Shown: positions 6,758 through 55,772 of the stretch, one piece after another
How positions within the stretch are numbered: the first letter of the stretch is position 1
Layout: every line of letters starts with the position of its first letter
DNA from: a candidate division LCP-89 bacterium B3_LCP
GTDB lineage: Bacteria; Electryoneota; B3-LCP
Direction: 5' to 3'
Length of the DNA stretch: 64,000 nucleotides
NCBI GenBank assembly: GCA_005223185.1
Contig: NJBN01000001.1
Coordinates: 441,365 to 505,364, forward strand
Notes under the pieces: model-generated
The model's database searches: none
Seen by the model: only the letters and a program-made list of their open reading frames with translations
Told to the model about the DNA's origin: nothing
Translations under genes and position numbers: made by a program

Positions 6758-6800
6758 GTCATTGCGAGGAATCCCGCCACTGCGGGATGACGAAGCAATC
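6758..6800. repeat. GTCATT-type palindromic repeat (gtcattgcgagg…gacgaagcaatc)
   Basis: Imperfect palindrome; related copies at 18637, 36581, 37828 (variant), 38125 and 38307. Confidence 0.6.
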
Positions 6801-6825: not shown

Positions 6826-6872
6826 TCCCGTAGTCGAGGTCGCCTGCGCCCATGGTGTCCCTGACCCCGACA
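6826..6872. repeat. Palindromic repeat cccgtagtcgaggtcgcc…gtccctgaccccgacat
   Basis: Related copies at 36688-36718, 37931-37960, 38385-38414 and, reverse-complemented, near 55640. Confidence 0.6.
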
Positions 6873-18606: not shown

Positions 18607-18636
18607 AAAGGCGGCCGTCTGGCCGCCTTTTTTATT
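18607..18636. terminator. Rho-independent terminator between convergent genes
   Basis: aaaggcggcc-gtct-ggccgcc followed by tttttt: 7-bp GC stem, 4-nt loop, T6. Confidence 0.7.
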
Positions 18637-18660
18637 GTCATTCCTGCGTCCGCAGGAATC
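18637..18660. repeat. GTCATT-type palindromic repeat (gtcattcctgcg…cgcaggaatc)
   Basis: Near-perfect palindrome starting with GTCATT, same family as 6758 and 36581. Confidence 0.55.
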
Positions 18661-18821
18661 AAGAGGTGTAGGGTTTCTCACTAATTTCTACATAAGAAGG
18701 TATCATCCTATCCCGTAGCCAGGGTTCTCCTCGATCCTGACATTAGACTTTTCGCTGCGCCAGAGTGACAATTTAAGGGTAGCCCCTTTTAGTTTTCATA
18801 TTTAGGGTATGGGAAAGTAAT

Positions 18822-28810: not shown

Positions 28811-29569
28811 ACGCGCAGGGCTGAAATTTCAGGCATATTCGCAAGCATAAATTATATAGAACTTGAAAGATAACTCTTTTCTCCTGCCAGTACAAGTAAA
28901 AAAAGGAAAAAACTGGTTGATAAGATTACCTTTGCAGTCGTTGTAGTTGACATATACGAGGAAAGTTAACTCTCAAGTTCGCTTAAAGTCAACAAAATAG
29001 AGCACAATAAATTGTGATGAAATGGGAATTGGTTCGGGTGCATTAACTAATACATCCGAATAAATTCGGATGCCCAATTTTTAGGTGAAGTCGCTAAAGT
29101 GACTGGTTTGTTCTACGAAATTATTCGGTACAACACAATTAAATATGTTAACAACCAGAAGGATTACCACTCAGATCGAAGTTTTAATAACACGCCATTG
29201 GCTTTAGCCAATTGACCTAAAATTCGGGCATAGGATTTTCCCGAAGGGATTCCCATGGAACAATCCTATGTCAGTAGGGATCTACTTATAATCACTTCGG
29301 GATAAAACTATCGCTTGACTCAAGGGTATAGCACGGCAGCTTGTCTGCCGCCCATTCATAGCGGGGGAAGCACACCCGCTCTACGGATCGATATTTGGAC
29401 TAATTCACCCGTTTGAAATAACAGATAAACGATCACTTCAGTGATCTGAAGTTAAGTAGCCCGGGAAATCTGTTCCCGGGTGTTGGTTGGATAACAGATC
29501 CTTTAATCCTATGACAACAAGAGCCTAGGATATTGACCCAAGCTGAATTCTAAGGCTGAAACAACTTGT

Positions 29570-29594
29570 GCCGCAGAGTCCCTGTACTCTGCAG
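29570..29594. repeat. Palindromic repeat gccgcagagtccctgtactctgcag (copy 1)
   Basis: Stem gcagagt/actctgc with a 6-nt loop; second copy at 29787-29811. Confidence 0.5.
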
Positions 29595-29786
29595 TAATAA
29601 TAACAAATACCCACAGGCTGTCATTCTGGCAAGCGTAGCGCGTCCAGAATCTGACAGCCTTACAATGTTGGGTCTCCACAGTTCAACTGTGGGTTAATCC
29701 TTCCCAAAAGAGCCTCCTTCAGGGGGCTTTAAATATCCGTAGGCCAGTGCTTTAGCGCTGGACTACTTCCCGTCAACTTGACAAGT

Positions 29787-29811
29787 GCCGCAGAGTCCCT
29801 GCACTCTGCGG
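29787..29811. repeat. Palindromic repeat gccgcagagtccctgcactctgcgg (copy 2)
   Basis: 9-bp stem ccgcagagt/actctgcgg; paired with the copy at 29570. Confidence 0.5.
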
Positions 29812-29856
29812 TAGTAATTCCAATTCCCCAGAATCACTTGGGTACAAAACTATCCC

Positions 29857-29885
29857 TTGACTTACCTGTTTAAATTGTTTATATT
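29857..29885 (+). promoter_or_regulatory. Sigma-70-like promoter TTGACT-N17-TATATT
   Basis: ttgact 29857-29862, 17-nt spacer, tatatt 29880-29885. A partial copy of the upstream module (aatcacttSgg…aaaactatc.cttgact) is also present at 29291-29330. Confidence 0.5.
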
Positions 29886-29924: not shown

Positions 29925-31754
29925 GTGACTGAATCCTCAAGAAATCGAATAAAACGTTTGTATAAATACATATACATCCTCATATCATTGCTGATATGCA
30001 TACTATTCCTATTCCAGAAAGATACCCAGGCAGAAGCAGCACGGATATACATGGACGGTAATTTCAGCGACTGGGAATCAGTAGAACCACTGCATGTTGA
30101 TCCTGTCGGTGATCAATTAGTTGACAGCCTGGATTTCGGTACTCTCTGGGTGGCTAATGATGAACGATACCTTTTCCTATGCCTGGAACTGGGAACTGAT
30201 ATACTTCTGCAGGAAGAACACGATTTCGATCTCTATCTGGATACGGACAACGACCCATCTACCGGGCAGCCAATCAACGGCATTGGAGCTGATTTCGACT
30301 GGAATTTCAATGATGGAGACGGTCACTTTCGCGTAGGTCCTATTCCCTATCCCGTTGACCATGAAGACTTAAGCTTTGTCACTGCACCCACTGTTTCATC
30401 CGATATCTACGAGATTGTAATCGATCGGTACGCAACTCCTGTGGGTCAGTATGAACTGTTCACCAGCGATACCATATCCATTCTCTTTCATGATAGCGGC
30501 GCCGGGCAGGATTATCTTCCCGATGCGGGAACGACATTACAGTATGTATTCGATGATTCTCCTTTGCCTCCATTTCCGGTATCATCGATTCAAAAGCAGG
30601 ATCCGTCGCATATCCGCGTTCTGTCCTACAACGTACATCTGGATGATTTCTTCGATCCTTACCTTGAAGATGAATACACGCGCATTCTTAATGCTATCGA
30701 ACCGGATGTAATCGCTTTCCAGGAAATCTACGATCACAATGTATTTGAAACAGTTGACCGGGTGACTGCGATGCTGGGTGGGGCATGGTACGGCACCAAG
30801 ATCAACCCGGACATAATCCTGGTCAGCCGATATACATTTGCAGAAACCATTAACATCTACGATGATGGCAACGGAGCTTTCCTCCTCAACCTGCAGCCGG
30901 ATTACGACTGTCAGATGCTGGTTATAAACGCTCACCTGCCCGCTGGACAAGCCAATACAAACAGGCAGAATGAAGTTGACGCCATTATGGCCTTCATCCG
31001 AGATGCCAAAGAACCCGGTGGAGAATTAGAATTGGAAGAGAACACCCCAATTCTCATTACCGGAGATATGAATTTCGTGGGTTACGCGCAACAACTGGTA
31101 ACCATGGTTACCGGGCAGATCTACTTCACGGGCCCGTTCGGCCCTCCCTTCGATCCCGATTGGGATGGAACCGATTTTACCGATCTGACCCCACGCCATA
31201 CAGATACGCCCTTCTATTTCACCTGGTATAACGATTGGAGCTACTATACCCCTGGCCGCTTCGATTTTATGATATACAGCGATTCGGTCCTGGAAGCCTG
31301 GAATAACTTCGTCCTGTTCACTCCGGGAATGTCACCCGATTCCTTAGCCGCCAATGGTCTGCAGGCTGATGACGTTTTAGATGCTTCAGATCACCTCCCC
31401 GTCGTCTGCGATTTCGTGCCTAATCCGGAAATGGGTGTATCTGGCAAGGATGACAGCCACAAACCAGCTGAATACGCTCTGTTACAGAACTTCCCCAACC
31501 CCTTCAACCCCACAACAGTTATCAGTTTTTCTATGCCAGTTTCGAGTTGGGTGAAACTGGATGTGTTCGATATAAACGGACGCAATGTAGGGGCGGGTTT
31601 GTCCCGCAGGGACGCCGAAGGCGAAACCCGCCCTTATACCCCCGGCACCCACCAAATCACCTTCGATGGATCTGGTCTTCCCTCTGGTATCTACTTCTAC
31701 CGTCTGACGGCGGATGATTTCACAGCGATAGGTAAGATGGTGCTGATCAAGTAA
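29925..31754 (+). CDS. Secreted endonuclease/exonuclease/phosphatase (EEP)-family protein with T9SS C-terminal domain
   Basis: Start moved to GTG 29925 (GGAG 5 nt upstream; the TTG at 29886 sits at the predicted transcription start). Signal peptide. EEP motif set: LSYNV, DVIAFQEI, INAHL, TGDMNF, YSD, SDHLPV. C-terminal Por_Secre_tail. Paralog of the C-terminal half of the 33227 gene. Confidence 0.7.
   Translation: MTESSRNRIKRLYKYIYILISLLICILFLFQKDTQAEAARIYMDGNFSDWESVEPLHVDPVGDQLVDSLDFGTLWVANDERYLFLCLELGTDILLQEEHDFDLYLDTDNDPSTGQPINGIGADFDWNFNDGDGHFRVGPIPYPVDHEDLSFVTAPTVSSDIYEIVIDRYATPVGQYELFTSDTISILFHDSGAGQDYLPDAGTTLQYVFDDSPLPPFPVSSIQKQDPSHIRVLSYNVHLDDFFDPYLEDEYTRILNAIEPDVIAFQEIYDHNVFETVDRVTAMLGGAWYGTKINPDIILVSRYTFAETINIYDDGNGAFLLNLQPDYDCQMLVINAHLPAGQANTNRQNEVDAIMAFIRDAKEPGGELELEENTPILITGDMNFVGYAQQLVTMVTGQIYFTGPFGPPFDPDWDGTDFTDLTPRHTDTPFYFTWYNDWSYYTPGRFDFMIYSDSVLEAWNNFVLFTPGMSPDSLAANGLQADDVLDASDHLPVVCDFVPNPEMGVSGKDDSHKPAEYALLQNFPNPFNPTTVISFSMPVSSWVKLDVFDINGRNVGAGLSRRDAEGETRPYTPGTHQITFDGSGLPSGIYFYRLTADDFTAIGKMVLIK
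31587..31638 (+). repeat. Palindromic element embedded in frame in the T9SS C-terminal domain coding sequence
   Basis: gtaggggcgggttt-gtcccgcagggacgccgaaggcg-aaacccgccc: inverted termini plus an inner gtccc…gggac hairpin. Encodes VGAGLSRRDAEGETRPY, which replaces the shorter canonical loop (ATxVDGFRNA). Confidence 0.7.
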
Positions 31755-31821: not shown

Positions 31822-31850
31822 TTGATAAATGAAGTGTGATTGAGTATATT
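31822..31850 (+). promoter_or_regulatory. Sigma-70-like promoter TTGATA-N17-TATATT
   Basis: ttgata 31822-31827, 17-nt spacer, tatatt 31845-31850. The ORF-track start at 31836 lies inside this promoter. Confidence 0.45.
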
Positions 31851-31889
31851 CTGGGAAAGAAAGTAGTACCTTCCTGTTTTGAGGTTCTT

Positions 31890-33049
31890 ATGAAAGCTAT
31901 CTTGCTTAGTCTTCTTCTTTTCACATTAACATTAGCCGCTCCCGCCCAACCACCTATCCTCTGGTTCCAAACCTTCGGTGGATCCAATTATGATTACGGT
32001 AAAAGTGTCCAACAGACAGGCGACGGTGGGTATATCATTGGAGGATATACCGAATCCTATGGTGCAGGTTCAAAAGACGTCTATTTAGTCAAAACCCACG
32101 CTTTTGGTATAGAGCAGTGGAGTCAAACCTACGGTGGAAGCTCCGATGATGGTGGCTGGAGTGTTCAGCAGACGAATGACGGAGGATATGTCATAGCGGG
32201 CGAGACCAATTCTTTTGGTGCTGGTGGTAGTGATGTATATTTAATCAAGACAGACGCTTCTGGGATAGAACAATGGAATCAGACCTACGGTGGAAGCGAT
32301 TATGAAGAGGGCTTCAGTGTACAGCAAACCTACGACGGCGGTTATATTGTTACTGGATATACCCTATCATACGGTGTTGATTATGAAGATGTATATTTAG
32401 TCAAGACCAACGCTTCAGGCATACAACAATGGAATCAGACCTACGGTACAACCATATCTGATTATGGTAGAAACGTACAGCAGACCTCCGACGGTGGTTA
32501 TATCATAGCGGGATGGACCTTATCTTATGATAGTGATGTCTATCTAATTAAAACATCTCCCTCTGGTAATTATCAATGGAGTAAGACTTTCGGTGGGGAA
32601 GCGCGTCGGATTGGGGAAACAGTGTTCAGCAGACTTCTGACGGCGGGTATATCGTTGCGGGGTCGACCACTTCCTACGGCGCTGGAGAAACTGACGTTTG
32701 CCTGATCCGCCTGGATGCTGAGGGGACACCTGTAAAAGATCCAGGCTTCATACAGGATATCCCCAACGATTTCGCTTTGTACGAAGCCCACCCCAACCCC
32801 TTCAACCCCACCACAACCATCAACTTCGAGTTACCAGTCGCCAGTTTAGTGGAACTGGATGTGTTCGACATCTCCGGTTCCCGCGTAGGGGTCGCCTGCC
32901 CCTTCGGGGGTCTTGCGCCGACCCGTATCTACACCCCCGGCACCCACCAGATCACCTTCGATGGATCTGGTCTTCCCTCTGGTATCTACATCTACCGCTT
33001 ACAAGCTGGCGAGTTTTCAGCGATAGGTAAGATGGTGCTACTCAAGTAA
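31890..33049 (+). pseudogene. T9SS cargo gene with tandem ~48-aa beta-propeller-like repeats, interrupted by a -1 frameshift near 32598
   Basis: Start ATG 31890 (gagg 5 nt upstream; signal peptide MKAILLSLLLFTLTLAAPAQ). Repeats of YGGSxxDxGxSVQQTxDGGYIIxGxTxSYGAGxxDVYLIKT. Frame 0 derails after TFGG at about 32598 and stops at 32705. Frame 2 continues the repeat (SASDWGNSVQQTSDGGYIVAGSTTSYGAGETDVCLIRL…) into the C-terminal domain ORF 32777-33049. The slip is in a gggg/aa run; a sequencing error is not excluded. Confidence 0.55.
32885..32926 (+). repeat. Palindromic element embedded in frame in the T9SS C-terminal domain coding sequence
   Basis: gtaggggtcgcctgcccc-ttcg-ggggtcttgcgccgaccc: outer gggtcg/cgaccc stem with an inner cccc-UUCG-gggg hairpin; encodes GVACPFGGLAPTR. 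A 60-nt stretch around it is identical to 36391-36450 in the next gene. Confidence 0.65.
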
Positions 33050-33074
33050 TGAACCAGCTTAAAAGTGATTGTAG

Positions 33075-36200: not shown

Positions 36201-36571
36201 ATGCTTCTGACCATTTACCCGTAGTAGGTGATTTTGTACCCAATCCGGGCACAGTCTTGGCGGGAAATTATAACAGCCAGCAACCAGCCCGGTTCGCACT
36301 ATTACAGAACTATCCCAATCCGTTTAATGCATCAACAACAATCAGTTTCCAGTTGCCAGTTTCGAGTCTGGTAGAACTGGATGTCTTTGACATCTCCGGT
36401 TCCCGCGTAGGGGTCGCCTGCCCCTTCGGGGGTCTTGCGCCGACCCGTCAATATTCACCCGGCACCCATCAAATCACTTTCGATGCATCGGGATTAGCAT
36501 CTGGTATATACCTTTACCGACTGCAGGCTGGCGAGTTTTCCGCGATAGGGAAGATGGTGCTGGTGAAGTAA
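33227..36571 (+). CDS. Secreted multidomain protein: parallel beta-helix region + EEP (endonuclease/exonuclease/phosphatase) domain + T9SS C-terminal domain
   Basis: Start ATG 33227 (aagga RBS; signal peptide MNRLMLSIYILLFGFISAVRA). Beta-helix-like repeats (GGGVWIENCSVL, GGGIFLNQSD, GGGICVGQNC, GGGIYVSANG). C-terminal half is paralogous to the 29925 gene with the full EEP motif set (MSYNV, DIIAFQEI, INAHL, TGDMNF, SDHLPV). C-terminal Por_Secre_tail. Confidence 0.7.
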   Translation: MNRLMLSIYILLFGFISAVRADTTFVASGPVSGAWTSAGNPYFVYEGDIVVPDGRSLTVLPGVEVLFTGNYKLTVEGLLNAEGTEADSITFTRAYSTEESKWRGFRFDAADDGCTLKYCRIEYAKGTGPYPDVRGGGVWIENCSVLIRNCTIAHNYTHNENYNGSGGGIFLNQSDQSIIEYNYITQNQADNGGGICVGQNCYTIIRHNTFDNNQTYSSGGGIYVSANGESVINDNIFVDNHSSGIYGGGAINLWSATWIYGTFSYVYNNLIMNNTASSAGGGIYHRYESSIVYNNTLVGNQANQGGGIYVLTFSDLPPTIYNSIIWGNNAPVGSQIYLDPQSGSVANISYCDVHAGWPGVGNINSDPEFVSGSGGDYYLSQIAAGQPVQSPCVDASDPISTMITGTTRTDGVQDEGIVDMGYHYAIETVVSMNVVLTPLNPPIQIPAIGGTFEFDVLIENLESSPVLCDIWTEAILPSGQPYPLILREDVNIPAGGSIERTLSQNVPESAPAGSYSYHAYVGDHPNMVYAEDSFTFEKLTGLEATRIYMDGDFSDWESVEPLHIDPVGDQLADSLDFGTLWVTNDERYLFLCLEVGAEMMIQVEHDFDLYLDTDNDISTGLSINGIGADLDYNFNDGTGNFLAGGTTYTIYHEDLGLATAPTYSSNIYEIVIDREAYPAGQYELFTSDTISVLFHDSGPGQDYLPDEGTTIQYVFDDSPLPTLPVLSLQKQDPSHIRIMSYNVWTDNLFEPDLEDEYTRILNAIEPDIIAFQEIYNHNASQTVDQVTSMLGGQWYGYKINPDIVLVSRYEIAETFNVNNDGNGAFLLDLQPDYDCQMLVINAHLPAGQSNTGRQHEVDAIMEFIREAREPGGELELEVNTPILITGDMNFVGYYQQLFTMVTGQIYYTGTYGPPFEPDWDGTNLTDLIPRHTDTPFYFTWYNESSYYCPGRLDFMIYSDSVLEAWNNFVLFTPGMSPDSLAANGLQWDDVVNASDHLPVVGDFVPNPGTVLAGNYNSQQPARFALLQNYPNPFNASTTISFQLPVSSLVELDVFDISGSRVGVACPFGGLAPTRQYSPGTHQITFDASGLASGIYLYRLQAGEFSAIGKMVLVK
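36407..36446 (+). repeat. Palindromic element embedded in frame in the T9SS C-terminal domain coding sequence
   Basis: Same element as 32885-32926 (gtaggggtcgcctgccccttcgggggtcttgcgccgaccc); encodes GVACPFGGLAPTR. Confidence 0.65.
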
Positions 36572-36580
36572 AAACAAACC

Positions 36581-36618
36581 GTCATTGCGAGGACGGCGCA
36601 GCCGGACGAAGCAATCCC
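36581..36618. repeat. GTCATT-type palindromic repeat (gtcattgcgaggacggcgcagccggacgaagcaatccc)
   Basis: Same family as 6758-6800. Confidence 0.55.
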
Positions 36619-36839
36619 ATAATAATTAATACTATAGGGTGGGGGTGCTTGTCTGCCTCGGGCAGGCTTCTCCCGCCTTTTCTAATTCCGTAGTCGGGGT
36701 CGTCCCTGACCCCGACATGAGGTAGCGCGGGAGCTATATGGGCAGGCCAATCCCTGCGCGAGATATTCACAGGATTTTCCCTTATCAGGGACAATGAGCG
36801 GTTTGGATGCTGCGAAAATTTGCCTTTTTTTTAAAATCC

Positions 36840-36868: not shown

Positions 36869-36915
36869 GCACTGTGATCGCAGCAGATTTAAATTCAATT
36901 AATCATGGAGGAGTT

Positions 36916-37734
36916 ATGAGAAATGCTATGCTATTTATAACCGTCCTGATTACTGCAGGTGTAGTGATTTGCTCCGCTGGTACGCAGGGCGTTATAAATC
37001 CCATTCCAACGGTAGTTGACGGCACTACCCAGGGAGATTTCATGGACTGGAATTGTTGGGAGGGTTTCCGACCCATTGATGATCCGACCGACGTGATTGA
37101 TACCTTGTGGTGGACAGGCAATATCGAATACCACATCTTCGGCACTCAGTCCATAAGCTGGGATCCTGATTTACCGGAGATCGGTGGGGTGGTAATGGAG
37201 ATCAAGTACGGTCTATGGAATTCGCCGCAGGTGGGATTGGCAGTTTCGGTTAATGGTAATCCAGTGGGAGTTTGCATGGCCAATTATGGCTATATATCGC
37301 CAGGGCCAAAATACGGGCGAGCACACATTTCCGACTACATCGTAGCGGGGCCTGACCTGATCGAGATCGTAGCTTCCTATGGTGGTGAGGCTGTAATCGG
37401 TTATGTAGCAACCGCAGTTTGGGTTGATGGAGATAATCTTGCTGGTGAGGTTGAAGACACTTTCAAGCCGATGGATTTTGAATTAATAGGTCCTGCTCCT
37501 AACCCCTTCAATCCGACCACGGTGATTGGTTTCCAACTGCCAAATGCCGGGAAAGTCAACCTGGCCATTTACGATATTTCGGGCAGACAGGTCGCCGAAT
37601 TGGTCAACGGCTGGCGCGATGCAGGTATGCATGAAGTAACCTTCGATGCATCTGATTTAGCTTCAGGCATCTACCTTTACCGCTTACAGGCAGGAGAGTT
37701 TTCAGGGGTAGGAAAGATGGTGTTAGTGAAGTGA
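36916..37734 (+). CDS. Small secreted protein of unknown function with T9SS C-terminal domain
   Basis: Start ATG 36916 (ggaggag RBS; signal peptide MRNAMLFITVLITAGVVICSAG). C-terminal Por_Secre_tail (APNPFNPTTVIGFQLP…YLYRLQAGEFS…KMVLVK). Confidence 0.55.
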   Translation: MRNAMLFITVLITAGVVICSAGTQGVINPIPTVVDGTTQGDFMDWNCWEGFRPIDDPTDVIDTLWWTGNIEYHIFGTQSISWDPDLPEIGGVVMEIKYGLWNSPQVGLAVSVNGNPVGVCMANYGYISPGPKYGRAHISDYIVAGPDLIEIVASYGGEAVIGYVATAVWVDGDNLAGEVEDTFKPMDFELIGPAPNPFNPTTVIGFQLPNAGKVNLAIYDISGRQVAELVNGWRDAGMHEVTFDASDLASGIYLYRLQAGEFSGVGKMVLVK

Positions 37735-37784
37735 CGCACTGTGTGCGTCATCCTGAACGTAGTGAAGGATCTCATTTCAATTGT

Positions 37785-37814
37785 AGGGGCAGACCTCTGT
37801 GTCTGCCCTTTTTG
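37785..37814 (+). terminator. Rho-independent terminator
   Basis: gggcagac-ctctgt-gtctgccc followed by ttttt. Confidence 0.6.
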
Positions 37815-37894
37815 TTTGCTCCCTACCGTCATCGCGAGGAATCCGTCAGCCGACGGATGACGAAGCGATCCCAAAGCTCTTCAGATAAATCTCA

Positions 37895-38002
37895 TTTTCA
37901 CTGCTGTCGGGTCTCCGTACCCGACAGATCCCGTAGTCGGGGTCGCCCCTGACCCCGATACCATGCCGTAGGGCGGGGGTGTCCGTAAGGACTCCAATGG
38001 AG
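37895..38002. repeat. 108-bp direct repeat, copy 1 (composite of palindromic modules)
   Basis: ttttcactgctgtcgggtctccgtacccgacagatcccgtagtcggggtcg.ccctgaccccgataccatgccgtagggcgggggtgtccgtaaggactccaatggag; near-identical to 38349-38456. Confidence 0.8.
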
Positions 38003-38348
38003 TAGGCGGGGTGGCATGCTTCTGGATCGCCTAAGGCGAATCGAAGCATGTTTAAATCGTCCAGATATTGACCCCACAGCAGATCTGTGGGGCACCTAAC
38101 AGACGAATTCAAGTTTGTCATTCCGCACTTGATGCGGAATCCAGAATACCCGGAAATATCCGAACGGCTCCTATGGAGAATTCCTGAGCTAACCAATTTC
38201 TGTCCCGTGAAGCGGGACGTAAAGGTTTAAGCATCCCGCTTGAGCGGGATAGCATAAAATTAGCCCGGAAATTCATTTCCGGGTGGTGTAAGGTAATTAA
38301 TCAAAATGTCATTCTGAGCAAGCCGAAGGCGCAGCGAAGAATCTCCTG

Positions 38349-38456
38349 TTTTCACTGCTGTCGGGTCTCCGTACCCGACAGATCCCGTAGTCGGGGTCGT
38401 CCCTGACCCCGATACCATGCCGTAGGGCGGGGGTGTCCGTAAGGACTCCAATGGAG
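38349..38456. repeat. 108-bp direct repeat, copy 2
   Basis: Near-identical to 37895-38002. Confidence 0.8.
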
Positions 38457-38750
38457 CTTCCCCCGCCCTTTATTTATCGTTCCACTGGTACAAATTTGTC
38501 CGCCAATTTGTATTGTCCGCTAATTCTGTCATCGGTATTAAGATTACGGTAGATCGCCTGGATGACTAAAATGTCGTAGTCAGGGGTGGATGGGATAGTT
38601 TTCATGTGCATTATATAGTTGGATTATGAGGGGAGATTGTTGTATTTGAACAAACAATTGAGGTGAGTACTTATATATAATATACAACAATTCATCAGAA
38701 AATGCAAGGAGTTTTGGCAGAAATATGGAGTGGGTGGTGGTTCTTTAAAG

Positions 38751-38915
38751 GTTTCAAATCCCCCTTGGTCCCCCTTTGGAAAAGGGGGAAACTGCGTAAT
38801 TCCCTGCATACCCACTAACACCCCCCTTTCCCAAAGGGGGGAGTCCCAACTTGTTGGGACGGGGGGATTTCGGGACGGGGGGATTTCGGGACGGGGGGAT
38901 TTGGGCGGGGGGATT
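38751..38915. repeat. G/C-tract-rich ~165-bp direct repeat flanking the 3' side of the DUF559 gene
   Basis: ggtttcaaatcccccttggtccccc…ccctgcatacccactaa…cccccctttcccaaaggggggag…, then 3 tandem units of gggacggggggatttc. About 85-90% identical to 39275-39425. Confidence 0.8.
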
Positions 38916-39261
38916 ACAGATGATTCCAAATCACCTGCAGCACCCCCTCAATATTATTCATAACCTCCAGGTTGCTGAATCGCAACACTTGAAATCCTAA
39001 TTCATTCAGATATGAATCTCGTTTACGGTCTTTGATCTTACCCTGAGGGGTAAAATGTTGTTCACCATCTAATTCAATAATTATTTTCGCTTTAGGACAA
39101 TAAAAATCAACAATGTAATTTCCAATTACTCTTTGACGATAAAATTGGGTACGTTTTAGTTGTTTGCGTCGTATTCTGTTCCAGAGCCGTTTCTCTGCTT
39201 CAGTGGCATTATTTCTTAACTCTCTGGCAAGAAGTTTCAATTTGGGATTATAATAGATCAT
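38914..39261 (-). CDS. DUF559-family endonuclease-domain protein (Vsr-like PD-(D/E)xK fold)
   Basis: 115 aa; strong match to the remembered DUF559 pattern (YIVDFYCPKAKIIIELDGEQH…FQVLRFSNLEVMNNIEGVLQVI). Confidence 0.8.
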   Translation of the reverse strand: MIYYNPKLKLLARELRNNATEAEKRLWNRIRRKQLKRTQFYRQRVIGNYIVDFYCPKAKIIIELDGEQHFTPQGKIKDRKRDSYLNELGFQVLRFSNLEVMNNIEGVLQVIWNHL

Positions 39262-39274
39262 GCTTCATTGTTGA

Positions 39275-39425
39275 GGTTTCAAATCCCCCTTGATCCCCCT
39301 TTTCCAAAGGGGGAAACTGCATCTTTCCCTGCATACCCACTAATTCCCCCCTTTCCCAAAGGGGGGAGCCCCGACTTGTCGGGGCGGGGGGATTGGACGG
39401 GGGGATTTTAGACAGGGGGATTAAA
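39275..39425. repeat. G/C-tract-rich ~150-bp direct repeat flanking the 5' side of the DUF559 gene
   Basis: ggtttcaaatcccccttgatccccc…ccctgcatacccactaa…cccccctttcccaaaggggggag…gggcggggggatt…; same orientation as 38751-38915. Confidence 0.8.
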
Positions 39426-42487: not shown

Positions 42488-44035
42488 CTAAAACTGCTCA
42501 CACACCGCCTTACCCTGAGTGAAGAGCGCTAAATAATCTCTGCCGCCAGCTTTGGAATCGGTGCCGGACATGTTGAAACCACCGAAGGGTTGAACGCCCA
42601 CCAGAGCGCCCGTACACTTGCGGTTCAGGTAGAGGTTGCCTGCATGCAGTTCCCTGCGCCCGACTTCCAAATTGCCGCGGTTACCGCTGTATAAAGCGCC
42701 GGTCAATCCGAATTCAGTGCCGTTTGCGATGGCTATGATATGCTCGAAATCCTTCGCTTTGATGAAAGCCAGAACCGGCCCGAAGATCTCCTCCTGAGCG
42801 ATGCGCGCTTCCTCATCTACGTCCTTGATGATGGTTGGCTGAATGAAATACCCGCCGTCGGGACCCTTGCCTCCACCCAGAACCAGTTCGCCTTCCTTCT
42901 TACCGATTTCGATGTATTCCAAAATCTTGTTGTAGGCAGCTTCATCCACCACGCCGCCCATGAAGTTGTCCTGATCCTTCACTTCACCGATGGTGATGGG
43001 CTTAGCCTTTTCAACCACTTTCGCCACCACTTCATCATAAACCGATTCGTGAACGATGGCACGGGAACAGGCGGAACACTTCTGCCCCTGAAATCCAAAA
43101 GCAGCAGCGACGATCCCCTGTGCCGCCGCATCCAGATCGGCAGATTCATCGACCGCGATGAAGTCCTTACCGCCCATCTCCAGAACGGTGCGCTTGATCC
43201 AGATCTGACCTTCGGATTTCTTGGCAGCACGTTCATGGATGCGCAAACCTACTTCCATAGAGCCGGTAAAGGCGATGAAACGGGTGCGGGGATGATCGAC
43301 TATGGTATCACCGATTTTACTGCCGGGTCCGGGGAGGAAATTCAGCACGCCGTCAGGCAGACCGGCTTCCTTCATGATCAGATAAAACTGGTATCCGATC
43401 GCCGGAGCGGTTGACGCCGGTTTCAGGATTACGGTGTTGCCTGCAACTATGGCAGCCGAAGTCATCCCGCAGAGGATAGCTAAGGGGAAGTTCCAGGGAG
43501 GGATTACGGCGCCCACACCTAAAGGTATGTAATACAGTTCGTTCTCTTCGCCGGGGTAGGGGATAACCGGCTGAGGCTGACCGTAGCGCATCATCTCTCT
43601 GCCGTAGAATTCCAGAAAGTCGATAGCTTCGGCTACGTCGGCGTCCGCTTCTAACCAGTTTTTGCCGACTTCATATATCATCCAGGCGGCTAATTCGCGG
43701 CGGCGGCGCTTCATTATGGCTGCGGCTTTGATCAAATAGCGGGCGCGATCATCGGGAGCAACGCGGCTCCAGAGCTTGAAAGTCTCATCCGCAGTAGCTA
43801 TGGCTTTTTCAGCTTGTTCCTTGCTTCCTTTGGAACAGTTGGCTACGACTTCATCGTACTTGGAGCAGTTCAAAGATACGATCTTATCATCGGTGACGAT
43901 CTCCTTTCCGCCGATGACTAAAGGTATGGTAATTCCTAACTGCTTCTGGACTTTATCCAGCGCAGCTATCATTTCCTGCCGGTTTTCGCTTTTGGAAAAA
44001 TCGGTAAAGGGGGTTGGTACAAATTCGGGGAGCAT
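42488..44035 (-). CDS. L-glutamate gamma-semialdehyde (1-pyrroline-5-carboxylate) dehydrogenase
   Basis: 515 aa aldehyde dehydrogenase with catalytic-Cys region GFQGQKCSACSRAIV and Glu motif LEMGGKD; size and sequence match RocA/PruA-type P5CDH. Confidence 0.85.
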   Translation of the reverse strand: MLPEFVPTPFTDFSKSENRQEMIAALDKVQKQLGITIPLVIGGKEIVTDDKIVSLNCSKYDEVVANCSKGSKEQAEKAIATADETFKLWSRVAPDDRARYLIKAAAIMKRRRRELAAWMIYEVGKNWLEADADVAEAIDFLEFYGREMMRYGQPQPVIPYPGEENELYYIPLGVGAVIPPWNFPLAILCGMTSAAIVAGNTVILKPASTAPAIGYQFYLIMKEAGLPDGVLNFLPGPGSKIGDTIVDHPRTRFIAFTGSMEVGLRIHERAAKKSEGQIWIKRTVLEMGGKDFIAVDESADLDAAAQGIVAAAFGFQGQKCSACSRAIVHESVYDEVVAKVVEKAKPITIGEVKDQDNFMGGVVDEAAYNKILEYIEIGKKEGELVLGGGKGPDGGYFIQPTIIKDVDEEARIAQEEIFGPVLAFIKAKDFEHIIAIANGTEFGLTGALYSGNRGNLEVGRRELHAGNLYLNRKCTGALVGVQPFGGFNMSGTDSKAGGRDYLALFTQGKAVCEQF

Positions 44036-44073
44036 TGTGCCTCCGTTAGGTTATTTTAGTTATATTTATAAGT

Positions 44074-44125
44074 CTGAAAATATAAGCAAAAACCCTTGAA
44101 AATTCAAGGGATTTTAGGGAAAAAG
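44074..44125. repeat. ~50-bp direct repeat, copy 1, with central inverted repeat cccttgaa-aa-ttcaaggg
   Basis: tctgaaaatataagcaaaaacccttgaaaattcaagggattttagggaaaaag; about 85% identical to 45516-45568. The pair brackets the DUF3800-like gene. Confidence 0.75.
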
Positions 44126-44343
44126 AATGTAAAATGTAGAATGGTGAATTTTAAATTAGGAATTTGTAATGGGAGGGAGAATCAGGGACATCTCCAAAGG
44201 TGCAGGCAAGCCGCTGAGGGAGCTTACGCCCTGTCCCGAGCACACACGTTTTTGTTGTAAGCAATATGATTTTGGGATAGATTAAATATTTATTTCATCA
44301 ATAAATCTTCTCAAATAGTCATATTTCTGATTACTAAGAATAT

Positions 44344-45447
44344 CTAGTTGGCGCTTACTCGCAATAGAATGTCTTCGCGAGCCTTCTTCAACCTACTAAG
44401 CATCGGGCCAATCTGACCACTCATTTGCCCCACAAAATCATATAAATCTTGCTCGGAGTCCGGTATTTTATAACCTTTTGGACTACTTGCTATAATCACT
44501 CCTTTATCTCTAAGCTTTGCAATTACCTTTGAGCGCAAGTAATGAGTAGTTACTTTATTCGGGCTAACCTGATTTAGAATTCTCTTTAGCTGTTCAGTAA
44601 ATATGTACCTTTTTGAATTTACATATCTAAAGTGGTAAAGTAAATATTTCAACGCTTCTAGCTGATCTGTTATAACTTCATCTTTAGTGTCCATATTTTC
44701 TTCAATAAAATTTGATGCTTTATAAAGTGCTAGCTCACAGATAAGATTATCAAAATCGTTTCCTTTAGTAATCCATGACTTATTTGTAGAAGGGTGACTT
44801 ATTGGTGGCCATGTGTCAATTAGCAAAGTCCGATTTAATAAAATATTCATAAAATCTTTTGAAACGGTTGTGGATTTTTTGGGATCAAAATGTCTTGCGA
44901 GTGTTCCAGATATAAAGTCAGCAAGTTGAACTATTGGTTGTTCATGACTCGCAACAAATCCGAATTCTGCTCGGATGAATAGATCAGGTACATGATTCTC
45001 GTTTACATATTTTTGAAAGCCTTCCATAAAAGATCTTCCCCCGTATTCATCGGATATTATAAACATTTCGGGGAAGGTACGATATAACTTTCTGTAAAGC
45101 AATCCATGCGTAAACTTAATAAATGGCTCTCTGTAAATTAATCCACTGCTTTCCCATACCTCACGTTTATCAATTATAATAGAATAAAATTTAAAATCTA
45201 ATCCAGCAATATCCTTTAATATCTTTCTCCTTCTTTCATCATTTGAACCAACATTCTTGGACTTCATCTCCCCAGTGCGAAAATGGATTTTTCGTATTTC
45301 ATCTGCATCCCGTTCCAATTCTACTAAATGATCGTGTTCTACTATAATAGCAGTAATAATAAAGCATGTTGACACTCCTCCTTTTGAAACATCCAAGTTA
45401 GGGTCTCCATACGCGTCAACGAATGCATACTGAGGTTCTAAGTTCAT
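44344..45447 (-). CDS. DUF3800-like protein with C-terminal extension
   Basis: 367 aa; N-terminal YAFVDAYGDP and later SHEQPIVQLADFISGTLARHF resemble remembered DUF3800 signatures (DESG-like start, Q.AD..AG…R). Family call from memory only. Confidence 0.5.
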   Translation of the reverse strand: MNLEPQYAFVDAYGDPNLDVSKGGVSTCFIITAIIVEHDHLVELERDADEIRKIHFRTGEMKSKNVGSNDERRRKILKDIAGLDFKFYSIIIDKREVWESSGLIYREPFIKFTHGLLYRKLYRTFPEMFIISDEYGGRSFMEGFQKYVNENHVPDLFIRAEFGFVASHEQPIVQLADFISGTLARHFDPKKSTTVSKDFMNILLNRTLLIDTWPPISHPSTNKSWITKGNDFDNLICELALYKASNFIEENMDTKDEVITDQLEALKYLLYHFRYVNSKRYIFTEQLKRILNQVSPNKVTTHYLRSKVIAKLRDKGVIIASSPKGYKIPDSEQDLYDFVGQMSGQIGPMLSRLKKAREDILLRVSAN

Positions 45448-45515
45448 TTCTTCTTTAAATCCTATTCTTTGTATGGCACAACAATTCGGATCATATTTTA
45501 TATATCTCTAGACGT

Positions 45516-45568
45516 TTTAAAATATAAGCAAAAACCCCTGCAATTTCAAGGGGTTTTGGGGGTAAAGC
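45516..45568. repeat. ~50-bp direct repeat, copy 2
   Basis: ttttaaaatataagcaaaaacccctgcaatttcaaggggttttgggggtaaag; same orientation as 44074-44125. Confidence 0.75.
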
Positions 45569-45645
45569 GTGTTTATAAAGATTATTATACAATCGATCTT
45601 TAGCATTTCATGTTCCCAAAAAGGGAAAATAGTTCTTGACTTCTA

Positions 45646-48375: not shown

Positions 48376-48780
48376 AGTGTAGTTTCCACTGCCCTGTTGC
48401 TGTTATTACCCGTATGTGGTATGCTGGGGGGGGGTATCTATAATGGACATTGATTAGTTATTTTTGACAGGTAGAGCGGGGGCTTGCCCCCGCTGGCGGT
48501 AGCAAGCTACCGCGCTACTTCTAAGTGTGCCGTCAGGTGCCCTCACCTGACGGAATAACAATGACTAATGTGTCCGCGGGGGCGCATGACACCACTATAA
48601 TATGAAGAATTTGAGCTTGCTTCGTCATCCGTCGGCCGACAATGGGACACAGGATTGCTCCAAGGGAGTCCCTATGGGAAAATCCTATGCCCAATTTTTA
48701 TCTCAAAGTGGATAAATCCACTAACCTGATTACTCAGGACAGTCTGGGATAATAAGTATCAATCTTATAGCTTATGAACT

Positions 48781-53349: not shown

Positions 53350-55248
53350 TTATTTCAGCAGCACCATCTTCCCTGATGCCGTATATTCCTCAGCCGTCAG
53401 GCGATAGATGTAGATGCCGGAAGACAGGTTCGATCCATCGAAGGTGATTTGGTGGGTGCCGGGAGGATGCCATGCGCCCTGTGTAGGGGCGGGTTTACCC
53501 TTATAAAGGGTGCCTTCGGCAAAACCCGCCCCTACATTGCGCCCGTTGATGTCGAACACATCAAGTTTCACTAAACTCGCAACTGGCAGGGAGAAGCTGA
53601 TGGTTGTGGTGGGGTTGAAGGGGTTGGGGTAGGCGCCGTTCAGGGTAAACTCATTTATGGTAAAATCTGTAAATTTATTGAGATACTCATCAGGTAGTTT
53701 ATCCCACCCCGTCAATATCCAGTTCGATACTGTGTGAGAATCTGATGAACCTGGCAGTTTCTCAAAGGGAAAATGATCCTCAGCTAAGAGCTCGATGGTA
53801 TTATGGTCATAGATGTAAGCATTGTAAACATAGTCTCCAGCAAGCGCATAGCCGGGGACGTTCTGGGCAATACTATCCCGCTGGATGACAGACCCTGGGA
53901 CTAAATTAATCCCCTGGCGATTGAAAACCTGATAGATAGCACCGCTCGGCAAAGTAATATCGTTCCGAATATCAACAATGTAGGTAATACTATCATTATT
54001 GGCAATTTCAATATCGTAGGTAAACGAACCGCCCGCTGCAGGAATCTGAATCGGAGGATTATGGGGATTAAGTACAACTGATATGTACTGTTGTTCAGGT
54101 TCAAGGCATATCATCAGGAAGTCTGCTATTCCAGCGCCAAGCGTATTTGTCCATCCAGCAATAAAATAACCTTCGTTATTCGTTTGATCAACCGCATATC
54201 CGACACTACTGTATCCACATGCAAACATTTTATGCCATTCTTCACTGCCGGAGGCATCTGTCTTTAATAAATAGACTCCTGGAGGCGAATAAGAAAGCGA
54301 ATACCCCGTCACTATGAATCCGTTATCGGACGTAAGATCAACGCTATGACCTTCTTCAGCTGAAGTTCCCCCGTACGTTTGTGTCCATGTTGGGTTCCCA
54401 TCAGCATCGGTCCTCAGCAAACACACATCGTACATGCCTGCCCCGGATGAATTGGTCGCGCCGGTGATAATATAACCTCCATCAGGCGTTTGCATAACGT
54501 CATGTCCAACGTCTGACCCACTGCCGCCATAAGTCCTCGACCATTGTTCAATACCAAAAGCATCGGTTTTTATCAAATACATATCATAAAACGAGGAAGA
54601 CATTGAAAAGGAATTGGTGCAGCCGGCGATAACGAAACCATCGTCTGAGGTTTGTCTAATACTGAATCCCTCATCACAATTGGAACCACCGAAAGTCCTC
54701 TCCCACTGTGTAATACCGTTGCTGTCAGTTCTAATGATAAAAATACTCTCTTCGCCGGGACCATATGACCAGGTTTCAGCAACAAGAATATATCCGTTAT
54801 CACTGGTTTGTATTACGTCATTACCAGCGTCTCTGCCTGTACCACCGTATGCTTCAGACCATTCTTCGTTTCCGTTTTCATCAGTTTTTATCAAATAAAT
54901 ATCGCAATCTCCCGGTCCGAATGAGAAGGTGTCACCAATGATGATATATCCACCATCTGTGGTCTGTATTATACCAGTTCCGCTTTCATATGAAAACCCA
55001 CCGAAAGTTTTTGTCCAGACGGTGTCACCATTGGCATCAACTTTCACAAGATATACATCAGCAGAACCATTACCGAAAGACGCTGTTTGTCCCACAGTAA
55101 TAAAACCACCGTCCGTTGTCTGCTGCCCATCGAAGCAGAAGTCACTTTCAATCCCTCCACAGGTTTGAATCCATTGGGTATTTGGCTGAGCATTAATTGA
55201 GAAAGCGAGAATAAAAATCGCTAACAAAGAAGTATGAAATCTATGCAT
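53350..55248 (-). CDS. Secreted protein with tandem ~48-aa beta-propeller-like repeats and T9SS C-terminal domain
   Basis: Start moved to ATG 55248 (aggaggtg RBS; signal peptide MHRFHTSLLAIFILAFSINAQ). Repeats of TFGGxxxExGxxIIQTxDGGYIIxGxTxSFGxGxxDIYLIKTD, paralogous to the 31890 gene. C-terminal Por_Secre_tail containing the in-frame palindrome. Confidence 0.6.
   Translation of the reverse strand: MHRFHTSLLAIFILAFSINAQPNTQWIQTCGGIESDFCFDGQQTTDGGFITVGQTASFGNGSADVYLVKVDANGDTVWTKTFGGFSYESGTGIIQTTDGGYIIIGDTFSFGPGDCDIYLIKTDENGNEEWSEAYGGTGRDAGNDVIQTSDNGYILVAETWSYGPGEESIFIIRTDSNGITQWERTFGGSNCDEGFSIRQTSDDGFVIAGCTNSFSMSSSFYDMYLIKTDAFGIEQWSRTYGGSGSDVGHDVMQTPDGGYIITGATNSSGAGMYDVCLLRTDADGNPTWTQTYGGTSAEEGHSVDLTSDNGFIVTGYSLSYSPPGVYLLKTDASGSEEWHKMFACGYSSVGYAVDQTNNEGYFIAGWTNTLGAGIADFLMICLEPEQQYISVVLNPHNPPIQIPAAGGSFTYDIEIANNDSITYIVDIRNDITLPSGAIYQVFNRQGINLVPGSVIQRDSIAQNVPGYALAGDYVYNAYIYDHNTIELLAEDHFPFEKLPGSSDSHTVSNWILTGWDKLPDEYLNKFTDFTINEFTLNGAYPNPFNPTTTISFSLPVASLVKLDVFDINGRNVGAGFAEGTLYKGKPAPTQGAWHPPGTHQITFDGSNLSSGIYIYRLTAEEYTASGKMVLLK
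53483..53535. repeat. Perfect 53-bp palindromic element embedded in frame in the T9SS C-terminal domain coding sequence
   Basis: gtaggggcgggttt (53483-53496) and aaacccgcccctac (53522-53535) are exact reverse complements, enclosing two small hairpins (ccctt-ata-aaggg and gcc-ttc-ggc). Encodes the extra loop VGAGFAEGTLYKGKPAPTQGAWH. Confidence 0.8.
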
Positions 55249-55741
55249 GATAGCACCTCCTAAACTTATTAATTGCATAACGAATGTCACTAAGTTGTTG
55301 ACTCGTGTGCTGTAGGATATATTATCTCAAATTCTGTGCCGTATAATTTAATCGACACAACTTTCCTGGTGTAATTATTTCCGCCTATAGTCAGGGATAA
55401 GAGAATTATCCCACTGAGTAGGTTTCCTGTTGTGTCAGGCTTTGCCTTCGAAGTCTTGACCTGCTCCAGCGGGATGAAGCCTGCCCTCAACCGAATTACC
55501 TCTAATATACACAATATTTTCGGTTTTGTCAAGTGGTTTGTTTTTTTGGGGGGATTTTCTCGAAAAAAGCGTCAGGTCTCCGTTGCACTAAGGACCTAAC
55601 GCAACATGTAAAGCGGGGGCAAGCCCCCGCGCTACCTTTTGTCGGGGTCAGGGACGGCCCATGCCGAAGGACAGGCAAGCCCGAATACGGGATAAGGAAA
55701 GGGCGGACACAGAGGTCTGCTCGGGGGAAGCCTTGTGAATT

Positions 55742-55772
55742 AAAAAAAGGGCAGACACATAGGTCCGCCCCT
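55742..55772 (-). terminator. Rho-independent terminator (minus strand) downstream of acyl-CoA dehydrogenase
   Basis: Minus-strand gggcggac-ctatgt-gtctgccc followed by ttttttt; same hairpin family as 33075 and 37785. Confidence 0.6.

Follow-up and report, generated by a model that had tools for sequence, protein, structure and literature searches.

Most repetitive extragenic palindromes (REPs) fall into two superfamilies, distinguished by the unpaired tag at their end, GTAG or CGTC (Di Nocera et al., 2013; PMC3733652). The E. coli REPs, the REPINs of Pseudomonas and the SMAGs of Stenotrophomonas carry an unpaired 5' GTAG followed by a G+C-rich stem of 8-10 bp, and they are located downstream of genes with stems that covary under a conserved tag and loop (PMC2817692, PMC3733652, PMC8266576). 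The gene of a REP-associated tyrosine transposase (RAYT) placed between two inverted REPs is the defining layout of the REPtron (PMC2817692). The dRS3/NTS repeats of Neisseria, RPE-4 and RPE-6 of Rickettsia and the Ssn-related motifs (SRM) show instead a (C/T)GTC tag, an 8-bp stem starting with ATTCC, a loop of 4-5 nt and a CCA tail (PMC3733652, PMC11893778). Di Nocera et al. (2013; PMC3733652) found no enzyme for the CGTC REPs. In Neisseria, the single-stranded DNA form of dRS3/NTS (CGTCATTCCCGCGMAVGCGGGAATCYRG) is bound by SsnA, a 94-aa single-domain GIY-YIG nuclease that cuts just upstream of the repeat, does not act on RNA and is typically encoded by genes flanked by the motif (Chenal et al., 2025; PMC11893778). 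Here we describe a spacer of ~740 bp (37735-38473) in a 64-kb stretch of DNA (the window) from an apparently uncultured source. This spacer is very probably a mosaic REP cluster, with members of at least these two known superfamilies (GTAG and CGTC/TGTC) accumulated between convergent genes. The repeats are of kinds already described, now found in an uncultured lineage, and the cluster as such is an ordinary feature.

Architecture of the spacer and its REP families

The left boundary of the spacer is the TGA stop codon (37732-37734) of a plus-strand gene (36874-37734) coding for a Por_Secre_tail protein (Pfam), which carries a C-terminal sorting domain for type IX secretion (T9SS). Since the next supported gene, a DUF559 endonuclease (38914-39261, Pfam 5e-38), is on the minus strand, the spacer lies between convergent genes. 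Its end at 38473 may be set by a 43-aa open reading frame (ORF) without support (38474-38605, minus strand). The neighbours of the cluster are housekeeping and secreted-protein genes.

The initial annotation had described 37735-38470 as an intergenic region packed with palindromes of several REP-like families. Every hairpin module that it named is present, and 37735-38473 contains 10 distinct perfect hairpins (stem of at least 7 bp, loop of 3-12 nt) against 0.4 +/- 0.6, with a maximum of 3, in 200 dinucleotide-preserving shuffles. Over the whole window, intergenic DNA had 3.9 such hairpins per kb and coding DNA 0.55. The single-strand folding of the spacer was also far stronger than that of the shuffles, with z values of -7.5 for the plus and -8.3 for the minus strand, and strong folding of both strands is what DNA palindromes are expected to give. 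No Pfam match was obtained among the ORFs drawn inside the spacer, TRF detected no tandem array in 37735-38473 and no tRNA was found there. The only direct repeat in the spacer is one family of two copies.

The families can now be named, starting with the GTAG superfamily. A GTAG REP has an unpaired GTAG directly 5' of a palindromic stem of 6-13 bp, 20-40 bp overall. GTAG followed by a perfect hairpin occurs at 26 sites in the window, compared to 5.2 +/- 1.7 in Markov simulations. Four of them are in the spacer (37783, 37933, 38387 and 38422), each with an 8-bp stem as in the described systems, and they represent three REPs that we designate REP-B, REP-C and the GGGCAGAC REP. The GTAG REP copies are mostly extragenic and near the 3' ends of genes, 14-190 nt past stop codons. 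REP-B is the module that the initial annotation had written as tagtcggggtcg (tagtcggggtcg.ccctgaccccgat) and is a canonical GTAG REP, CCGTAGTCGGGGTC-GTCCCT-GACCCCGAC. Written in full it reads CC-GTAG-TCGGGGTC-GyCCCT-GACCCCGA, or CCGTAGTCGGGGTC-GyCCCT-GACCCCGA for short. The window has three near-exact copies of it, with none expected.

That these motifs might not be enriched beyond this contig had been named as the finding that would speak against repeat families. Actually, a scan with the pattern GTAGTCGGGGTC-N6-GACCCCGA, taking one genome per species, matched at least 104 loci in other genomes. Ten matches in high-GC actinobacterial, acidobacterial, Chloroflexia and archaeal records were discarded as chance because their loops were unrelated and they were located inside coding sequence. 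The remaining matches share a conserved loop of the G(T/C)CC(C/T)(T/C) type and come from at least 18 metagenome-assembled genomes (MAGs) of 41-63% GC, with up to 15 loci per genome among the matches listed. The titles of these records name LCP-89, Calditrichaeota, KSB1, Planctomycetes, Chloroflexi/Dehalococcoidia, Thermodesulfobacteriota and Nitrospinae. The consensus of 97 copies among the matches listed is (C)C GTAG TCGGGGTC GTCCCT GACCCCGA C(A). The window copy at 36688-36716 agrees with it at 29 of 29 positions, and the two copies within the duplicated unit described below differ from it at 1-2. Phage carriage was considered and rejected, the viral contigs giving a single REP-B match.

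The stem of REP-B covaries. In order to avoid circularity, we collected all GTAG-N8-GTCCC[TC]-N8 sites with a stem other than that of the search pattern. Among 40 such sites, 35 formed at least 7 of the 8 Watson-Crick pairs, with 16 different sequences in the 5' arm, and none of the 40 did so when the 3' arm was slid by 3 nt. Compensatory changes of the stem under a conserved tag and loop are thus found here as in the described GTAG REPs.

The second superfamily is represented by the modules first noticed as GTCAT palindromes. They are CGTC- or TGTC-tagged REPs of the class of Neisseria dRS3/NTS, hairpins that we abbreviate as TGTCATTCC or [CT]GTCATTCC. The CGTC-1 design (PMC3733652) consists of a CGTC or TGTC tag, a stem of 8-9 bp starting with AT, a loop of 4-5 nt and a short CCA-like tail, and the copies at 38116-38144 and 18636-18662 fit it exactly. 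Perfect hairpins with a [CT]GTC tag and an AT-starting stem numbered 27 in 824 kb (window plus the loci fetched from other genomes) and 0 in the Markov control. All had loops of 4-5 nt, and CCA was their commonest tail. The long-loop GTCATTGCGAGG variants fit the design in tag and tail only. In the modules at 37746, 37827 and 38307, which share the tag and tail, the outer stem is short (5 bp), G.A mismatches are present and the inner hairpin is variable or nested. Other MAGs have relatives of this long form, among them a minimal GTCATTGCGAGCGAAGCGAAGCAATC.

Read from left to right, and on the plus strand unless stated, the spacer opens with the hairpin TGACGCAC-tgt-GTGCGTCA (37732-37750), which overlaps the TGA stop codon of the upstream gene. 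It is followed by a CGTC-tagged hairpin, CGTC ATCCTGAAC gta GTGAAGGAT CTC (37746-37773), with a 9-bp stem and a tandem G.A/A.G mismatch, and by the GTAG REP that runs into T residues, GTAG GGGCAGAC ctctgt GTCTGCCC TTTTTG (37783-37814). The composite CGTC element at 37827-37872 (outer part CGTCATCGCGAGG...GACGAAGCGATCCC) belongs to a repeat family (D15) with 79% identity to 6758-6800. Nested in it, on the minus strand, is a REP of the CGTC-1 type, CGTC ATCCGTC ggct GACGGAT (37841-37862). The first copy of a 108-nt unit (37895-38002) comprises an untagged hairpin that we call A (37904-37927), REP-B (37931-37959) and the 5' half of REP-C (37968-38002). Then come the nested hairpin GCATGCTTC-[TCGCC taa GGCGA]-GAAGCATG (38014-38050), untagged and without family, another untagged hairpin, CCCCACAG cagat CTGTGGGG (38072-38092), and the REP of CGTC-1 or dRS3/NTS design, TGTC ATTCCGCA cttga TGCGGAAT CCAG (38116-38144).

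Two short hairpins without assigned strand are located further on. GTCCCG tgaag CGGGAC (38202-38218) is untagged, and ATCCCGC ttga GCGGGAT (38233-38250) has the stem of the CGTC-1 REP at 6771-6788 with the tag lost. A degenerate GTAG REP with the tag TTAG, TTAG CCCGGAAA ttca TTTCCGGG TG (38260-38285), is related to GTAG CCCGGGAA atctg TTCCCGGG TG at 29456-29482. The TGTC-tagged hairpin with a long loop, TGTC ATTCTGAGC (14 nt) GCGAAGAAT CTCC (38307-38346), has the same design as 37746-37773, with a compensatory change of G-C to A-T between them. The spacer closes with the second copy of the 108-nt unit (38349-38456), where hairpin A is at 38358-38381 and REP-B at 38385-38413. This copy runs on to 38477 through a complete REP-C, GTAG GGCGGGGG (26 nt) CCCCCGCC, followed by the T-rich tail CTTTATTTAT (38422-38477).

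The same families appear in the neighbouring spacer at 36580-36716 (plus strand), with a long CGTC hairpin (36580-36620), a REP-C-like hairpin and the REP-B of 36688-36716. According to the initial annotation the modules recur throughout the window, and this is so for the CGTC type at 6758 and 36581, REP-B at 6826 and 36688, the TGTC type at 18637 and GTAG-CCCGGGAA at 29461. The sites at 48470-48520 and 55613-55635 turned out to be GTAG REPs of a different stem family, and a long-loop variant of REP-B tagged GTAT is found at ~55641-55693 on the minus strand.

Candidate partner genes in other genomes

We searched the fetched loci for genes that could act on these repeats. For the GTAG superfamily, an E. 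coli RAYT sequence was used as a search probe only, and the matches were then verified independently by Pfam and NCBIfam. Four ORFs pass the NCBIfam model NF047646 'REP-associated tyrosine transposase' with 101-117 bits, over a cut-off of 80, and the same four match Pfam Y1_Tnp. In two loci (L038, JADHWD010000133, and L018, CAZHMN010000115) inverted copies of REP-B are found on both sides of the RAYT gene. In a Thermodesulfobacteriota MAG (L084) REP-B is located directly upstream of it. L038 and L018 reproduce the REPtron layout in other genomes bearing the identical REP, the window having no Y1_Tnp ORF by Pfam. Besides, inverted doublets of REP-B, as in the described REPIN systems, are present in Dehalococcoidia and Planctomycetes loci. 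A RAYT (HUH/Y1 TnpA_REP) would bind the folded single-stranded GTAG REPs, cleave them and copy them. As a separate observation, the RAYT gene of L084 has a REP (GTCGGGCTCAGGGACGAGCCCGACTAC) in frame within its own sequence (1144-1172 of that locus), giving ~23 residues more than in the other RAYTs.

REP/REPIN populations are commonly viewed as lineage-specific and vertically inherited. A REP-B that is nearly identical across MAGs labelled as different phyla, adjoined by RAYTs that are only 27-39% identical to each other, sits uneasily with that view. It is a side observation of this work that merits a survey.

A similar situation was found for the CGTC/TGTC superfamily. An LCP-89 MAG (L003, JALGVT010000062), whose DNA is among the most similar to that of the window, has at 4880-5316 a 96-aa single-domain GIY-YIG ORF (Pfam 3e-13) between inverted TGTCATTCCTGCGCAGGCAGGAATCCA hairpins. 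These flanking hairpins (TGTCATTCCTGC..GCAGGAATCCA, also written TGTCATTCCTGC...GGAATCCA) have the stem of the window copy at 18636, and a third variant (TGTCACTCCCGC...) stands alongside. The arrangement looks like the NTS-ssnA-NTS layout of Neisseria (PMC11893778), which would extend to the LCP-89 candidate phylum with a putative SsnA-like gene. The protein has no NCBIfam or PDB match. A second GIY-YIG ORF, in locus L019, has a CGTCATTCCCGC hairpin upstream. By analogy, a small GIY-YIG nuclease of the SsnA kind would bind the CGTC/TGTC REPs as single-stranded DNA, on one strand, and the GTCAT modules of the window are probably CGTC-tagged REPs that work like NTS/SRM.

Several observations weigh against the description of the spacer as a mosaic REP cluster with these partners. 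The published SRM pattern, HGTCWYN(0-2)YYVSBRHN(0-5)WNVSBRGN(0-2)RNCYNB, finds 0 sites in the window (0.4 in shuffles), and for this reason we have not filed the GTCAT modules as strict SRM, their fit being limited to the earlier CGTC description. Checked by hand, the copy at 38116 misses the pattern at a single loop-side position, and three of the modules are longer variants than the described dRS3/NTS. About one third of the spacer's hairpins are untagged and outside any definable family, namely hairpin A and those at 38014-38050, 38072-38092 and 38202-38218. The orientation of the REPs is nearly uniform, unlike the inverted dimers typical of REPINs and of the bacterial interspersed mosaic elements (BIMEs). 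The tags at 37746, 37783, 37827, 37933, 38116, 38260, 38307, 38387 and 38422 are all on the plus strand and irregularly spaced. Finally, Pfam analysis of all 38 large ORFs detected no RAYT, GIY-YIG or other transposase gene in the 64-kb window.

The absence of such genes from the window suggests that the cluster consists of deposited, non-autonomous repeats, and that any enzymes acting on them would be encoded elsewhere. The source genome would then have its own RAYT and SsnA, and the repeats may still be mobile. We propose that REP copies pile up at this spacer because insertions downstream of convergent gene ends would do no harm. The enterobacterial BIMEs are similar in being a mosaic of palindromic units and short motifs in one spacer at gene ends. 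However, they are regularly spaced, derive from one superfamily and alternate in orientation. The spacer described here is irregular and mostly co-oriented and combines two superfamilies with untagged hairpins, and in these points it differs from a BIME.

Probable terminator, duplication and rival explanations

The hairpins nearest to the stop codon would be transcribed, and their most likely effect would be to end and stabilize the upstream mRNA. The GTAG REP at 37783-37808 followed by TTTTTG coincides with a terminator-like site (37785-37810) flagged by a consensus scan. This type of REP occurs three times in the window, at 33071, at 37783 and, on the minus strand, at 55749, with 0 expected. 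Each copy is located 20-50 nt past a stop codon in the orientation of that gene and runs into T5-7, and the stems differ by compensatory changes. The REP at 37783-37814 is probably the intrinsic terminator of the T9SS-cargo gene 36874-37734, judging from its design and position. Three features suggest that the proximal hairpins act at the RNA level, namely the overlap of 37732-37750 with the stop codon, the T-run after the REP at 37783 and the three copies placed alike. The strongest candidate for such a role would be the GTAG REP with its T-run.

It could be argued that the hairpins are RNA structure and not DNA repeats, the spacer coding for one or several structured non-coding RNAs (a small RNA or a cis-regulatory element of the 3' untranslated region). 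The folding is strongly non-random, the hairpins point the same way as the upstream gene and, in the minus-strand terminator-type copy at 55749, the transcribed strand forms a G.T pair. Sub-threshold Rfam matches were also seen, to Acido-Lenti-1 (20 bits) and Guanidine-II (17-19 bits). However, no Rfam 15 family gave a match in the window at its gathering score, the best sub-threshold scores being 17-26 bits, and at E<=5 there were only weak matches at chance level. The opposite strand folds equally well. Moreover, the modules are found in both orientations, within coding sequence and, in other phyla, on either side of RAYT and GIY-YIG genes, which is the pattern of a mobile DNA repeat, and the known nuclease of the CGTC class, SsnA, is inactive on RNA (PMC11893778). 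We therefore consider an RNA gene very unlikely as the explanation of the spacer, and we keep to a cluster of DNA repeats.

The direct duplication of 108 bp that had been reported at 37895-38002 and 38349-38456 holds in both its coordinates and its near-identity. The copies are 99% identical, with one mismatch located in the loop of the GTAG hairpin, and the edges are sharp (TTTTCACTG on the left, AATGGAG on the right). They are 454 bp apart and the 346 bp between them hold seven unrelated hairpins. Copy 2 continues into the 3' arm of REP-C. Copy 1 stops inside the REP-C loop and for that reason can be regarded as the truncated one. A 24-mer spanning the junction between hairpin A and REP-B, which both copies contain, was absent from the metagenome collection, and the sequence upstream of REP-B in other genomes is unrelated to hairpin A. 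These two facts point to a local unit rather than to a mobile composite. The repeat appears to be a recent local segmental duplication within the cluster, and it may have arisen by slippage, by recombination between repeats or by RAYT action. REP clusters have been described to reiterate REPs along with pieces of the DNA beside them (PMC3733652).

Alternatively, the duplication and part of the length of the cluster could be artefacts of short-read assembly through repeats. REP clusters are difficult to assemble, the source is apparently uncultured, with nearest matches to MAGs at 67-76% nucleotide identity, and the junction 24-mer is absent from the metagenome collection. On the other hand, the two copies differ at one base, their flanks are different and individually sensible, only copy 2 completes the REP-C hairpin, and segmental reiteration has precedent in REP clusters, as just mentioned. 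An artefact is highly improbable on these grounds, and we favour a true duplication.

The least credible alternative is that a larger mobile element decayed here and left the cluster behind. Such an element could be an insertion sequence or miniature element bounded by terminal inverted repeats, an array of integron cassettes or a CRISPR array. The direct duplication 454 bp apart and the DUF559 gene between direct repeats just downstream could be invoked for it. However, no long-range inverted repeats bound the spacer, there is no transposase, integrase or cas remnant, the spacing is irregular with neither a tandem array nor CRISPR-type periodicity, and the modules are independent families that are found singly elsewhere in the window.

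Downstream of the REP cluster, the DUF559 gene (38914-39261, minus strand), coding for a 115-aa Vsr-like endonuclease, is located between direct repeats of 121 nt (38749-38869 and 39274-39394, 89% identity) that are rich in CCCCCTTT-loop-AAAGGGGG hairpins. Only weak local matches to these repeats were found in the fetched loci. Similar hairpins with G/C runs are seen beside REP-B in two Calditrichaeota loci (L010 and L085). A 16-nt tandem repeat, GGGACGGGGGGATTTC x3.9, is found at 38856-38915. The possible 43-aa ORF at 38474-38605 (minus strand; MKTIPSTPDYDILVIQAIYRNLNTDDRISGQYKLADKFVPVER) has a promoter-like site at 38650-38623, and gave no Pfam match and no homologue in the fetched loci. Other repeats of the window are a 46-nt hairpin repeat (29568-29613 and 29785-29830) in a divergent spacer of 1.07 kb (28811-29885) and a CATAGGAT...ATCCTATG hairpin family (29225-29275 and 48651-48700). 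A 79-nt repeat (44052-44130 and 45494-45572) is located downstream of the stop codons of the minus-strand genes 42488-44035 and 44344-45447.

REPs inside type IX sorting domains

The initial annotation had also proposed that one of the families has entered coding sequence. The claim is true, at positions other than those it had listed. We have found in-frame GTAG REPs in four T9SS C-terminal sorting domains of the window, at 31587-31633 (plus strand), 32885-32924, 36407-36446 and 53483-53535. All four inserts are located just after a conserved 'GR.V'. The sorting domains that bear them are 83-90 residues long compared to 74-76 without insert, and in three of the four the Pfam Por_Secre_tail match spans the insert. 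One of the intragenic families (GTAG GGGCRGGTTT ... AAACCYGCCC) has an intergenic copy at 1573-1619. At 31836-33049, a beta-propeller-like cargo ORF ends at 32705 and its sorting domain is a separate 90-aa ORF in another frame (32777-33049). This split probably marks a pseudogene or an error of assembly or frame.

The same was observed in other genomes. Among the matches listed, ~17 of the ~100 REP-B copies are inside T9SS sorting domains, all on the antisense strand and all reading SGSGTTPTT or SGSGATPTT. These inserts are either at the same 'GR.V' site or ~9 codons before the stop. One locus (L067) has three REPs in a single sorting domain, and in another (L076) the REP is cleanly inserted in a domain that is canonical in all other respects. 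Altogether, GTAG REPs in sorting domains were recorded in L002, L006, L023, L025, L031, L067, L068, L073, L076, L086, L089, L090, L097 and L100. REPs that add 10-25 residues in frame to otherwise intact proteins are known from the Rickettsia RPEs and from the intragenic REPs of Opitutus terrae. The difference is that here the hosts are T9SS sorting domains, and that one or two fixed loop positions receive the inserts again and again, in paralogues and in different genomes. Our literature search found no link between REPs and T9SS signals.

The simplest reading is that REPs insert near the 3' ends of genes, that selection retains the tolerated loops and frames, and that there is spread among paralogues. 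A true insertion hotspot in the sorting domains may also exist. A more far-reaching idea is that REP-B and its RAYT form one lineage that is very old or spreads horizontally, and that GTAG REPs prefer T9SS sorting domains or serve a selected role in them. Its first part is suggested by the near letter-for-letter identity of REP-B across phylum labels, in company of RAYTs only 27-39% identical, and its second part by the fixed in-frame positions and the constant reading of the inserts in sorting domains. We put it forward as tentative and rather unlikely.

For annotation, REP cluster is the proper label of the spacer and of the ORFs called within it (e.g. 37846-38196), which should not be entered as hypothetical genes, and the inserts of 10-25 residues in secretion tags should be recognised as derived from REPs. 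With regard to the families, the range of both REP superfamilies now includes uncultured lineages of sediment and groundwater, and by association so does that of the RAYT and SsnA-like partners. The parts that deserve dedicated study are the identity of REP-B across phyla and the recurrent in-frame inserts in secretion tags. If the more far-reaching idea were true, REPs in sorting domains could diversify the secretion tags or be recombination joints that move tags between cargo genes.

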